The translations under genes and the position numbers were made by a program. A DNA stretch of 53,751 bases from Bacilli bacterium (GTDB lineage Bacteria > Bacillota_I > Bacilli_A > RF39 > UBA660), in NCBI GenBank assembly GCA_051872765.1, contig JBJEED010000030.1:1-53751 (forward strand). The letters are read 5' to 3'. The notes under the pieces are model-generated. The model had not been told where the DNA came from. It made no database searches and saw nothing but the letters and a program-made list of their open reading frames with translations. Below are positions 79 to 53,370 of the stretch, one piece after another. Position 1 is the stretch's first letter. Every line of letters starts with the position of its first letter.

Positions 79-1449
79 TTAGAATTTAATTCTCTCCTCT
101 ACAAAATCAACAATTTCTTCTATTTTTAATGTTATTTGTTCCATAGTATCTCTAAATCTAATTGTAACAGTACCATCATTTATAGTATTATCATCAATTG
201 TTATGCAAAATGGAGTACCAATAACATCTGCCCTTCTATATCTTTTACCAATAGATGCTGTTTCATCATAAGAACACATAAAATGCTTTGATAATTCATT
301 ATATATTTTAATTGCAGTTTCACTATGATATTTTTTAACAAGTGGTAATACGTTTACTTTATATGGAGCTAGGTATGGATGTAGTTTTAATACTTCTCTT
401 TCATCATTTTCAAGTTGTTCTTTATGATAGGCATTAAATAATACAGCAAGTACAGTCCTATCAAGACCATAAGTAGACTCTACTATATATGGAATATATT
501 TTTCATTAGTTTCTGGATCCAAATATGTCTGTGATACTCCGCTATACTCTTGATGGCGTGTTAAATCAAAATTAGTTCTATTATGTGTACCATTTATCTC
601 TCCCCATCCAAATGGAAATTTATATTCAATATCACACGCTGCCTTAGCATAATGAGCTAATTTTTCATGATCATGATATCTTAAATCACTTTCAGGAATA
701 CCAAGATCCATAAAGAATTTTTTACCAAACTCTTTAAAATAATTATAAAATTCTTCGTCTTCTCCTTCTTTACAAAAAGTTTGATATTCCATTTGCTCAA
801 ATTCAATTGTTCTAAATGTGAAATTACCTGGTGTTATTTCATTTCTAAATGCTTTTCCAATTTGACCAATACTAAATGGTAGTTTACATCTCATAGTCCT
901 TTGTACATTTAAGAAATTAACATACTCACCTTGAGCATTTTCTGGCCTTAAATAAACTACATTTTTACTATCATTTGTTACCCCTCTATATGTTTGAAAC
1001 ATTAAATTAAACTCACGAATATCTGTAAAATTAGATTTACCACATTTAGGGCAAGGTACTTTATTTTCTCTAATATATTTCATCATCTCTTCTTTGGATA
1101 AACTATCTCCAATTGAAGAATTTGAGAAATCATTTATTAAATTATCTACTCTATGTCTAGTTTTACATTCTTTACAATCAGCAAGTGGATCTGAAAATGA
1201 TGATACATGACCAGATGCTTCCCATACTTTAGGATGCATTAATATATCAGCATCTAACTCATAAGCATTATTTCTTTCTTGAATAAATCTCTTTCTCCAA
1301 GCATCTTTTATATTATTTTTAAGTCTACTTCCAAGAGGTCCATAATCCCAAGTATTAGCAAGGCCACCATATATTTCACTTCCTTGAAATATAAATCCAT
1401 AAGCTTTACAAAAATTTGTAAGTTCTTCCATTGTTATTTCACTTTTCAT
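79..1449 (-). CDS. glyQS: Glycine--tRNA ligase, alpha2 (eukaryote-like class II) type
   Basis: YGGLANTWDYGPLG, LRPENAQG, GKAFRNEITPGNFTFRTIEFEQME, WGEING and IGKRYRRADVIGTPF anticodon-binding domain; SD AAGGAGG; upstream T-box. Confidence 0.97.
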   Translation of the reverse strand: MKSEITMEELTNFCKAYGFIFQGSEIYGGLANTWDYGPLGSRLKNNIKDAWRKRFIQERNNAYELDADILMHPKVWEASGHVSSFSDPLADCKECKTRHRVDNLINDFSNSSIGDSLSKEEMMKYIRENKVPCPKCGKSNFTDIREFNLMFQTYRGVTNDSKNVVYLRPENAQGEYVNFLNVQRTMRCKLPFSIGQIGKAFRNEITPGNFTFRTIEFEQMEYQTFCKEGEDEEFYNYFKEFGKKFFMDLGIPESDLRYHDHEKLAHYAKAACDIEYKFPFGWGEINGTHNRTNFDLTRHQEYSGVSQTYLDPETNEKYIPYIVESTYGLDRTVLAVLFNAYHKEQLENDEREVLKLHPYLAPYKVNVLPLVKKYHSETAIKIYNELSKHFMCSYDETASIGKRYRRADVIGTPFCITIDDNTINDGTVTIRFRDTMEQITLKIEEIVDFVEERIKF

Positions 1450-1469
1450 AAAAATACCTCCTTAAAATA

Positions 1470-1583
1470 AAAAAACTCTAGACTAATATAAGGGTCCATT
1501 AGGACGGTTCCACCTTATTTATTCTAGAAGAATCACTTTAAATTTATAGCCTAAGTGCTTTACCATAACACTATCTTCGCTTT
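1470..1583 (-). promoter_or_regulatory. T-box riboswitch (Gly), compact
   Basis: Antiterminator AUAAGG[UGGAACC]GUCC-UAAU-GGAC-CCUUAU (1518-1488); Stem III AUUCU-UCU-AGAAU; short Stem I AGUGUU-AUGGUAA-AGCACU with a GGU Gly codon in its loop; U7 tract at 1475-1469; lies upstream of glyQS. Confidence 0.85.
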
Positions 1584-1589
1584 AAATAA

Positions 1590-1618
1590 ATACTAACACA
1601 ATTTATTTTTTATATCAA
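1590..1618 (-). promoter_or_regulatory. Sigma-A promoter of the glyQS leader
   Basis: TTGATA (1618-1613), 17 nt, TAGTAT (1595-1590) preceded by TGn. Confidence 0.7.
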
Positions 1619-1637: not shown

Positions 1638-2207
1638 TTATTTTAAACTTAAGTTATAACTTTTCGTAGTTTTTACAATAGCCGCATTAATTACATCTTC
1701 ATATAATTTTTTAATCTTTTCAACTAATATCATTCTTTTCATTTCACTTATATTACTTGAATCTAATTCATTTAATCCTCTATTTATACTATATCCTTTT
1801 AAATATTTAGATATTAATTTAATAATATAATCTAATTCTACATCTACTAAAATTACATTATCGCTCTTACTATCACAATATGCATATAAATTTTCTCCAA
1901 ATGTAACAAGTTCTTTACTAAATACTGGTTTTATGATACTAGTATTATTACTAACATATTCATTATATCCGTTTATTACTAATGAGTAACTCTTAATATT
2001 TTCTGGTAGTATAGAATGGAAATCTATACTCTGATTTAATATATCAACTGCCGTATTATCAAATTGTGATAATATTCCTTCATTAGACATATGTGGTCTA
2101 TTGATTATTGGTGTGCAAAAATACTTTCCATTATTATAATTTAATCTTGTAGTATTTCCCTTTTCATCATGACATAATACTTCTAATTTTATAATTCTTT
2201 TTATCAT
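1638..2207 (-). CDS. Hypothetical protein (189 aa)
   Basis: Open frame with a purine-rich SD and its own promoter (TTGCTT-17-TATAAT, 2271-2243); no recognised motif. Confidence 0.75.
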   Translation of the reverse strand: MIKRIIKLEVLCHDEKGNTTRLNYNNGKYFCTPIINRPHMSNEGILSQFDNTAVDILNQSIDFHSILPENIKSYSLVINGYNEYVSNNTSIIKPVFSKELVTFGENLYAYCDSKSDNVILVDVELDYIIKLISKYLKGYSINRGLNELDSSNISEMKRMILVEKIKKLYEDVINAAIVKTTKSYNLSLK

Positions 2208-2328: not shown

Positions 2329-4401
2329 TTATTTTTTTATTGATAATACTTTATTTCTAATACATTTTTTTGGATTTTCCCAATCATTTTTTCTTACATC
2401 TTCACTACTGAATATCATAGGTTCTGTATTTATGTATTGTATATCACCATTTTCATCATACCAAATAGTTACAAAATAATCTCCCATTAAATTAGGAATC
2501 TCTTGTTTCATCATAAATGATGATTGATCAACATTACATGGACAAAGTAATAAATGCACATTTCTATATAACATATAATATACTTTATGATAATGACCTC
2601 TAAGCGATAAATTAGGTTTTGTTCTAGATGGTATTTGATCTATTCCATTTTGTGGCTTTGTTGATAATATTCTTGATGTTCCACCTCCTGGGTGAAATAA
2701 TTCTATTACACAATTATCATAATATACATATGCTCTATCTTGCCCTAGATATTCAAAATCACTACGCCTTTTAGCTAATTCTTCACCAAATATAAAAGGT
2801 CCATAATTAAATGAGTGACTTTGATCATGACTACCACAAATACCTTTCCACTTCATACCAGGATATTTTGGTAATACTTTAGCAGTATAATCAACTTGAC
2901 CAGTTGCTCCCCATAAAAATACTTCATTTACATGATTAGGTCTTACTTTAGAATAATCTCCATCAGATATATCACCTATATGATACATATCGGTAATACC
3001 TCTATTATATGCTTCATAAGCAAATGTATTTACCATACTAGGTTGACACCATATACTACCATAATGAGTATCTGATACTACTCCAAATTGTTTCATAGTC
3101 AACTCTTCTTTTGGAGGTTTAACTTCATAGTGTCTTCTTCTTTGAAAATTCTTTCTAACTACAAGTTCATTATCAATATCAACAACTTCTATCTGCCTAC
3201 CATAAAGTTGTAACATATCAATAATTCCATATAATTCATTTCCAGATATTCCAAGTCTATTTTTAAGTGATTCAAAACTCTCTTCTTTTTTAATATTTTT
3301 ATATAATTTATCTAAAGTTTTAAATAAATCACTTTGACTCTTACCACTATTTTTAGATAATACTAATTGATAATCATCACTATCTTTTTTTAATTCAAGA
3401 GGCATAACAGTTAAATAGTTTTCTTTACTTGGAGTATAATATGGTGATAATGTTGAATTTAATCTTTTTAATTTACCTGCTTTATTATATTCTATTTCAA
3501 ATTCATAAGCACCCATAGTATTTTGTTGTGATGCAGCTTTCATTTTTGGAGTTCTTTCTACTACAGATGGTATAGCAAACATTCTTGTATCTCTAATTTG
3601 AGGAAATTCTTGAGCAGTTAGCGTTCCACCTAAGAATATTAAATCATAGTCTTCATAACTAGACATGCTTCTACTATATTTTTGAGGAGGATAAGCTATT
3701 GTATAAGATTCTCCAGACTTCTTTAAAGACTCTAATTTGATTGATACATTATTAAATTTAACTGTACAACTCTTAGGACCTAAATAAGTCATATCTTCTC
3801 TATTTTTATCTATATACTCACCAATATTTAAATCTTTAGCCCAACTATGATCAGTATCTCCAGTTATAAATAAAGTTTGTATTCCTTCAACCTTAGGAAA
3901 ATATTCTATTAAATGATCAGCTTGAGTATATCCATCATTACTAATTAAACTTTGACCATAAATATTTTCATCTGATTTTTTATATTTTCCCTCTACTAAG
4001 TTACCAGTAATAATAACATATTTAACTCCATCCCTAGCAAACTTTTTATACATGTCATTAAGCATAGATATTTGTTCATTTTTAGAGCCAAATCTAAGAT
4101 CAGATATAACTCCTATTTTTGTAGTTGAATTTATATCTTCTTCAATATTAAATGTAGACTCTTTAGTATAATCTGGATGATTATTAATTGATATTTCAGT
4201 GTTATTACCTTTATCCATTACTGAAATATTAACACCACTATCCTTTAACTTTTTAATATAGCCAAATAAATTAAAAGGTGAAATATTTAAACTTTCACAT
4301 AAAGTATTAACTGTACATGTTTTTTGTAATTTTTCTTTTAAAATATCAAGAATTTCATCATCACTATATACTATAGTCTCTTTTTGTTCATTTTCTTTCA
4401 T
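2329..4401 (-). CDS. Tandem (wHTH + calcineurin-like metallophosphoesterase) x2 protein; N-terminal module degenerate
   Basis: C-module has D444TH446, G476DISD480, G523SHD526, H570PGGG and G602HYH605. N-module equivalents are D101LR, G133NLVE, G181DTD, S225 and G258GTL. Each module is preceded by an approximately 60-aa wHTH-like segment. Confidence 0.85.
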   Translation of the reverse strand: MKENEQKETIVYSDDEILDILKEKLQKTCTVNTLCESLNISPFNLFGYIKKLKDSGVNISVMDKGNNTEISINNHPDYTKESTFNIEEDINSTTKIGVISDLRFGSKNEQISMLNDMYKKFARDGVKYVIITGNLVEGKYKKSDENIYGQSLISNDGYTQADHLIEYFPKVEGIQTLFITGDTDHSWAKDLNIGEYIDKNREDMTYLGPKSCTVKFNNVSIKLESLKKSGESYTIAYPPQKYSRSMSSYEDYDLIFLGGTLTAQEFPQIRDTRMFAIPSVVERTPKMKAASQQNTMGAYEFEIEYNKAGKLKRLNSTLSPYYTPSKENYLTVMPLELKKDSDDYQLVLSKNSGKSQSDLFKTLDKLYKNIKKEESFESLKNRLGISGNELYGIIDMLQLYGRQIEVVDIDNELVVRKNFQRRRHYEVKPPKEELTMKQFGVVSDTHYGSIWCQPSMVNTFAYEAYNRGITDMYHIGDISDGDYSKVRPNHVNEVFLWGATGQVDYTAKVLPKYPGMKWKGICGSHDQSHSFNYGPFIFGEELAKRRSDFEYLGQDRAYVYYDNCVIELFHPGGGTSRILSTKPQNGIDQIPSRTKPNLSLRGHYHKVYYMLYRNVHLLLCPCNVDQSSFMMKQEIPNLMGDYFVTIWYDENGDIQYINTEPMIFSSEDVRKNDWENPKKCIRNKVLSIKK

Positions 4402-53293: not shown

Positions 53294-53370
53294 GGCGATG
53301 TAGCTCAGTTGGCTAGAGCATCTGGTTCATACCCAGGAGGTCGTGGGTTCGAATCCCTCCGTCGCTACCA
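53294..53370 (+). tRNA. tRNA-Met (CAU), elongator type
   Basis: Full cloverleaf GGCGATG...CGTCGCTACCA with anticodon loop TTCATAC and encoded CCA. Position 1 pairs with 72 (G-U) and there is no GGG/CCC anticodon stem, so it is not an initiator; it resembles the B. subtilis elongator tRNA-Met. Confidence 0.95.

Follow-up and report, generated by a model that had tools for sequence, protein, structure and literature searches.

A putative glycine T-box leader of minimal design, lacking both the elbow-binding platform and Stem II, upstream of glyS in uncultured gut Bacilli

How small can an RNA be and still read the identity and the charge of a tRNA during transcription? In the current model of T-box riboswitches, co-transcriptional T-boxes need a long Stem I whose platform stacks on the tRNA elbow, and those with a truncated Stem I need Stem II (PMC7583486). 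The stretch of DNA analysed here (53,751 nucleotides, hereafter the window; ~25% G+C, from an assembly of 1.44 Mb that is 78% complete) carries a glycine T-box leader of 113 nt (1581-1469, minus strand) 5' of a glycyl-tRNA synthetase gene, and is a natural construct for asking this question. The first-pass annotation of the window had proposed a glycine T-box lacking both auxiliary tRNA-binding modules at this site, a reading supported by the conservation, covariation, synonymous specifier changes and fixed promoter position described below.

The regulated gene, glyS (79-1449, minus strand), encodes a single-chain (glyS-type) glycyl-tRNA synthetase of 456 amino acids. Its ATG start (1449-1447) follows a Shine-Dalgarno (SD) sequence, AAGGAGG (1463-1457), the two together occupying 1447-1463 of the minus strand. 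Because an ORF of 189 codons ends at 1638, only 188 nt of intergenic DNA upstream of glyS are available to the leader. Within them lies a promoter-like site (1590-1618, minus strand) recognizable from its sequence, with a -35 element TTGATA (1618-1613), a 17-nt spacer and a TG-extended -10 element TAGTAT (1595-1590), all placed as in the first-pass annotation; this predicted promoter puts the transcription start at ~1583 and yields a leader of ~134 nt up to the ATG at 1449. A -35/-10 pair is found at most 70 nt upstream in 117 of 128 distinct leaders of this type (with an exact TTGACA in 51), and the end of the predicted -10 element falls 10-12 nt before the Stem I basal helix in 88 of the 128. 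The 5' flank of the leaders is otherwise unconserved in the family alignment.

Stem I is ultrashort (34 nt; 1548-1581, minus strand). In the minimum free energy (MFE) fold, it consists of a basal helix (AGC 1581-1579 with GCU 1550-1548), a GA-motif region (GAAGAU...UAG) and a 6-bp upper helix (AGUGUU 1572-1567 with AGCACU 1559-1554) that closes the 7-nt loop AUGGUAA (1566-1560). The specifier GGU (Gly; 1562-1564, minus strand), flanked by U1565 and A1561, is displayed in this loop, whose N-U-GGN-A-A arrangement has the form of an anticodon loop (Y32-U33-NNN-R37-A38). Across 98 distinct sequences the specifier is GGA in 77, GGU in 12 and GGC in 9, and never a non-glycine codon; it is preceded by U in all 98 and followed by A in 96 and by G in one. 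Family members share a 3-bp base, in which pairs are UA in 62, AU in 30 and GC in 5, an upper helix of 3-6 bp and a loop of 5-9 nt (7 nt in 54/98). The short Stem I with GGU in its terminal loop that had been proposed from the letters alone is thus present in the fold, covaries among relatives and keeps a conserved U-GGN-A. A second glycine triplet suggested at the same time as an alternative specifier (GGC, 1551-1549) belongs to the basal helix, and the sequence there is GAGCA in most relatives, which disqualifies it.

The distal parts of a canonical Stem I (specifier internal loop/S-turn, AG bulge and distal loop) are absent from the leader. Since the hairpin is closed by its own terminal loop, a distal Stem I is impossible wherever transcription starts; a longer Stem I arising from an upstream start was rejected on this ground, and also on the lack of conservation of the upstream flank and the position of the predicted promoter, which abuts Stem I. 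At the base of the stem, the family consensus for a GA/K-turn motif has GAU-GA in the 5' strand and, opposite it, (N)GA in the 3' strand. An extra G sets the window's GAAGAU...UAG-GCU apart from this consensus, and the window's genus has UAG or GAG where the consensus has GA. The K-turn-like base claimed earlier therefore holds for the family, where the sequence consensus makes the motif appear secure, and is uncertain for the window's own copy. We note that T-boxes in this family keep the GA motif although PF01248 (L7Ae/YbxF/YlxQ), the K-turn-binding protein family considered below, was not found in the genomes searched.

Stem I is joined to Stem III by a single-stranded linker of 14 nt (1534-1547, minus strand) that ends in the purine string AAGUG (RRRxG). 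With only ~14 unpaired nucleotides between the two stems, neither the S-turn of Stem II nor the IIA/B pseudoknot is present. Directly after the Stem I basal helix, the linker carries a near-invariant RUAUA (window 1541-1547, minus strand; core U in 97/98 and A in 93/98), for which no pairing partner was found.

The 3' part of the leader has the make-up of an ordinary T-box discriminator. Stem III (AUUCU-UCU-AGAAU; 1521-1533, minus strand) is followed by AA (1520-1519), so that the segment reads AAGUG-AUUCUUCUAGAAU-AA in agreement with the RRRxG-Stem III-AA purine motif defined in PMC7583486. The AA is invariant in the family and the G before Stem III is found in 97/98 sequences; compensated variants of Stem III occur as AUUUCU/AGAAAU in two loci (L180, L181) and AUUUC/GAAAU in a third (L186). 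The antiterminator (1488-1518, minus strand) reads AUAAGG[UGGAACC]GUCC..GGACCCUUAU from 1518 to 1488 and places the UGGNACC bulge characteristic of T-boxes (UGGAACC, 1512-1506) between helices A1 (AUAAGG/CCUUAU) and A2 (GUCC-UAAU-GGAC). Whereas A1 follows R-UARGG/CCYUA-Y in the family, the bulge is invariant in 98/98 sequences. One further short-type leader (L193; G114:C71) was seen to have the bulge UGGGACC, with a G opposite the discriminator base, and a long A2 insertion. The genome of the window carries tRNA-Gly(GCC) and tRNA-Gly(UCC), both of whose genes end in GCUCCA (U73-CCA), complementary to UGGA of the bulge. The base of A2, where a G.U wobble has been described as a steric sensor of the 3'-aminoacyl group, is GU in 73, GC in 23 and AU in 2 of the 98 sequences; the window and its genus have G-C (G1505-C1494; GUCC/GGAC). 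The absence of Stem II and the presence of a normal Stem III and antiterminator, as first read, are confirmed by the sequence, by the alignment of the 3' half to RF00230 and by covariation.

At its gathering threshold the Rfam T-box model RF00230 calls no T-box at the window leader, which scores 29.6 bits against a cut-off of 93. Run in E-value mode, the model returns a sub-threshold match to 1487-1610 (E = 5.7e-5) in which the fit is good for the purines of the linker, for Stem III and for the antiterminator (AAGG[UGGAACC]GUCC..GGACCCUU), and the Stem I block is cut from 89 to 9 positions (80 deleted). None of 17 short leaders from relatives was detected at the gathering threshold, while ordinary T-boxes in the same loci were. 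The window's genome itself carries 11 ordinary-length T-boxes, which shows that T-boxes as such are not scarce in the lineage. The standard covariance model, and the databases built on it, thus overlook a branch of T-boxes in uncultured gut bacteria.

The same layout recurs in one family of small-genome gut Bacilli, where the matches listed by an exact-pattern scan for the Stem III/T-box core come from more than 120 species and yield 128 distinct leaders; all listed pattern matches are from uncultured gut or rumen "Bacilli/Tenericutes/Erysipelotrichaceae" assemblies, and two loci of the window's genus (L032 and L047) have identical leaders. The scan fixed the sequence of Stem III, and unbiased variation is that of 30 model-found loci and of relatives retrieved via glyS. 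When the glyS upstream regions of 30 relatives were inspected, eight species of the window's genus proved to carry this short leader. When a covariance model built from the short leaders was run on 400 genomes of the class, scores above 70 bits were confined to the window's own family (36 of 50 sampled genomes, more than 30 genera); outside it, the model matched just the discriminators of ordinary T-boxes.

In the model-aligned set of 98 sequences, 95.3% of the cells are paired and double changes are found at 18 of 24 pairs. None of 500 shuffles attained any of the observed covariation measures, and slid controls gave 40-51% pairing. Covariation in Stem I involves all four pairs of the upper helix (GC, GU, AU, CG, UA) and two of the three basal pairs; Stem III, A1 and A2 covary as well. 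Elsewhere in the same family (G061, L192) and in a sister family (G042, L020), glyS is preceded by a full-length T-box whose specifier is GGA, so that the short form looks, from sequence comparison, like a canonical Stem I minus everything distal to the specifier loop; compare, for instance, '...AAUUAU GAA GGA A CUUUU GA GCAA' in L020 with 'GGGU GU GGA AA GCCC A GA GCA' in L045.

In each of the 118 relatives with enough flanking sequence, glyS is found downstream of the leader. It is the first gene after the leader in 59 of them, and in the other 59 one ORF intervenes that encodes either a LOG-family protein (~180 aa, PF03641, E = 1.4e-17) or an uncharacterized protein of ~240 aa for which a Pfam search returned no match; loci with an intervening gene include L043, L045, L048 and others, as well as L013 and L029-L040. 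In other species of the window's genus the short leader is located further upstream, ahead of an extra ORF. The 189-aa ORF upstream of the window leader was considered as a counterpart of the ~240-aa intervening ORF of relatives and rejected, the sequences being unrelated. This ORF (1638-2207, minus strand) has no Pfam match. A strong terminator-like hairpin lies at 2312-2293, a 690-aa ORF (2329-4401, minus strand) has only weak, sub-threshold matches to helix-turn-helix and metallophosphoesterase domains, and a tRNA gene (53294-53367, plus strand; 66.8 bits) with CAU in its anticodon loop is found elsewhere in the window.

How such a leader might control glyS is suggested by the sequence that follows the antiterminator. 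The strand AUUAGUCUAGAG (1476-1487, minus strand) pairs with 1528-1519 to form the lower helix of a predicted intrinsic terminator, whose U tract (U7; 1469-1475, minus strand) comes immediately after. The pairing partner of this strand before the U run is CUUCUAGAAUAA, which takes in the AA as well as the loop and 3' half of Stem III. At the apex of the terminator fold, the antiterminator elements A1, bulge and A2 remain intact. A single long hairpin is the MFE structure of the 3' domain in 40 of 40 folds inspected, and the full 3' domain has a mean folding energy of -21.5 +/- 2.5 kcal/mol over 128 leaders (-16.7 kcal/mol in the window). Cut at the end of A1, the RNA adopts the standard discriminator fold (-10.4 +/- 1.4 kcal/mol), and Stem III forms in 108 of the 128 leaders. 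The U run measures 4-10 nt in 128/128 leaders, 126 of which have at least 7 U within a 9-nt window.

The lower helix has its own signature of constraint. In an alignment made without fitting to this helix, pairing reaches 96.7% in the helix core and three of five pairs show double changes, few because the 5' strand of the helix is nearly invariant. In model-found variants, matched changes link Stem III to the distal strand, with CUUUUAGAA found together with UUCUAAAAG in two loci (L167, L170), CUUAAAGAA with UUUUUUAAG in L183 and CUCUAAAGG with CUUUUAGAG in L186; in L182 an inserted U is matched by an inserted A in the distal strand, and L190 shows a similar compensation. In G114 (L193) the distal strand pairs instead with the 5' half of Stem III. 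These compensatory changes, together with the alternative folds, identify Stem III as the competing element: on sequence and predicted folds, the mutually exclusive structures are Stem III and the lower terminator helix, and not A1/A2. The published scheme differs in that the terminator takes its 5' strand from the 3' strands of A1 and A2 (PMC7583486). In the short leader these strands do not form the terminator 5' strand, and a canonical terminator in which they would pair downstream was rejected for want of a downstream complement.

The first-pass annotation had left the output ambiguous between a weak terminator (ACCCUUA/UAGAGU) and pairing of CCUUA with the UAAGG of the SD region. Neither proposal survives the comparison with relatives. 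The A/G variation in UAGRAG breaks the former helix and fits U-A or U.G pairs with Stem III, the latter pairing is unconserved with the SD mostly unpaired in the family folds, and their place is taken by the strong, long hairpin described above, which encloses A1, the bulge and A2 and is in competition with Stem III. An enclosing terminator of this type is not unique to short leaders, as it was also observed in ordinary-length T-boxes of the window's own genome (L003, L004, L006) and of relatives (L192, L195, L196, L201). Other T-boxes (L020, L198, L199) use the canonical arrangement, and in L002 and L007 the distal strand pairs with the T-box bulge itself (GGUACC).

With its anatomy and conservation, the covariation of both alternative structures, the fit of its codon and bulge to tRNA-Gly and its link to glyS as described above, we consider it probable, on sequence and folding models, that the leader works as a minimal glycine T-box that attenuates transcription. 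As to how it binds tRNA, senses the charge and folds step by step, we infer the following. Transcription would start ~3 nt before Stem I, and the loop N-U-GGN-A-A of a short, kinked Stem I would expose its glycine codon for pairing with the tRNA-Gly anticodon (GCC for GGU and GGC, UCC for GGA). The UGGA of the bulge would then pair with the UCCA-3' end of an uncharged tRNA-Gly. Held by both the codon-anticodon contact and the NCCA-bulge helix, this tRNA would lock Stem III and the AA in place, because an antiterminator without Stem III reportedly cannot bind the tRNA 3' end and the NCCA-bulge helix reportedly receives the flanking purines in its minor groove (PMC7583486), and because Stem III and the AA are what the terminator strand has to capture. 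When uncharged tRNA is lacking, the strand preceding the U tract would invade Stem III and extend A1 downward into the long hairpin, leading to termination at the U tract. As the terminator form still displays the bulge, the blocking of the lower helix by tRNA is a presumed step of this scheme.

The main difficulty for such a mechanism is one of affinity. Transcriptional T-boxes reportedly lose readthrough once the elbow-binding platform is disabled, and a truncated Stem I that lacks Stem II was reported to have barely detectable affinity for tRNA (PMC7583486). By analogy, the affinity of the minimal leader may be too low unless something compensates; candidates for replacing the lost elbow or Stem II contact are an extended loop-loop helix (UGGAA with U33-A37 of tRNA-Gly(UCC)) and the RUAUA linker. 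The same literature could alternatively be taken to suggest a relic or re-purposed leader that still attenuates and whose Stem I no longer reads the anticodon, the RNA responding to any uncharged U73 tRNA or to some other factor, or setting a constitutive level of termination. The discriminator alone was reported to be sufficient for sensing aminoacylation (PMC7583486), and the copy in the window's own genus, whose GA motif departs from the consensus and whose A2 has G-C as its basal pair, would be compatible with such a drift. However, the U-GGN-A loop is kept in 98/98 sequences and varies at the wobble base among glycine codons alone, the short helix is maintained by compensatory changes across many genera and the link to glyS is universal, which is the pattern predicted by selection for anticodon reading. 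We therefore regard a loss of anticodon reading as unlikely.

A protein might instead supply the missing tRNA contacts or stabilize the kink, in which case the RNA alone would not be the minimal sensor. The conserved GA/K-turn motif and the L7Ae-family proteins reported on T-box K-turns in Bacillus would point to a K-turn-binding protein. Yet PF01248 was found neither in the window's genome nor in 41 genomes representing 41 genera of the family, while control genomes were positive, and an L7Ae-type protein is consequently unlikely as the compensating partner; for protein partners as a whole, we judge the explanation to be slightly less probable still than a leader that has ceased to read the anticodon. 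Least probable of all, in our estimation, is translational control of the type known from actinobacterial ileS, in which charged tRNA would leave the SD (UAAGG) sequestered by CCUUA, the 3' strand of A1. The two segments are complementary in the window (1493-1489 and 1464-1460), and the known T-boxes with an ultrashort Stem I act on translation. Against this, the SD context of relatives varies (UUAGGAGG, AUUGGAGG, AAGAAAGG) and often lacks UAAGG, MFE folds pair on average just 17% of the bases of the SD, and every leader has, upstream of the SD, a helix that abuts a U run.

Returning to the transcription-attenuating T-box that we favor, it may tentatively be proposed that the short leaders form a distinct class, the smallest natural one among transcriptional T-boxes. 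Members of this class would make two base-paired contacts with the tRNA, one through a U-GGN-A loop mimic forming up to 5 bp with tRNA positions 37-33 and the other through the NCCA-bulge helix, would dispense with an elbow platform, Stem II and an L7Ae-type protein, and would be decided by the competition between Stem III and the enclosing terminator. We found no description of a glycine T-box lacking both the elbow platform and Stem II in the T-box literature searched, including the 2024 survey of glycyl T-boxes and the TBDB paper. Sequence conservation makes it clear that a leader of ~113 nt without either module is under purifying selection before an essential gene in more than 120 species among the matches listed. 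The existence of such leaders raises the questions of what compensates for the lost tRNA contacts and of whether Stem III can act as a switching element, and their small size recommends them for structural studies and for the design of tRNA sensors.

Among known systems, the closest are the glycine T-boxes (glyQS/glyQ/glyS; RF00230) of Bacillus subtilis, Geobacillus kaustophilus and Oceanobacillus iheyensis. Like these, the short leader has a glycine specifier followed by a purine, a single-stranded linker in place of Stem II or IIA/B, the RRRxG-Stem III-AA motif, a UGGNACC bulge matching U73-CCA between A1 and A2, an intrinsic terminator and a GlyRS gene under its control. Unlike them, it is devoid of the S-turn, hinge, AG bulge and distal loop that make up the elbow-binding platform and carries its codon in a terminal loop; the third specifier base in short leaders is mostly A, against the "C rule", and the terminator encloses the antiterminator and has Stem III as its competitor, where the known leaders build theirs from the 3' strands of A1/A2. 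The presentation of the codon also recalls complexes of tRNAs with complementary anticodons and RNA kissing loops, in which complementary triplets meet in two 7-nt loops, each of the form N-U-NNN-R-A; by this analogy alone, UGGAA could in principle pair with UUCCA (tRNA 37-33) over 5 bp.

The other relevant group is that of the ultrashort-Stem-I ileS T-boxes of Actinobacteria (Mycobacterium, Nocardia), for which we rely on the summary of Sherwood et al. 2015 given in PMC7583486. As described there, these T-boxes share with the short leader a naturally truncated Stem I devoid of an elbow platform and a standard discriminator, and have a K-turn at the base of Stem I, where the family of the short leader has its K-turn-like consensus. 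They differ in retaining Stem II, with its S-turn, and the pseudoknot IIA/B, which dock on the codon-anticodon helix, are reportedly indispensable for binding tRNA and are absent here, and in acting on translation through sequestration of the SD, whereas the short leader has a terminator hairpin and U tract, with an SD that lies downstream of the U tract, is mostly unpaired and is not part of an actinobacterial-type sequestrator. The two shortened forms also differ in amino acid and in lineage, the one serving isoleucine in Actinobacteria and the other glycine in small-genome Bacilli.
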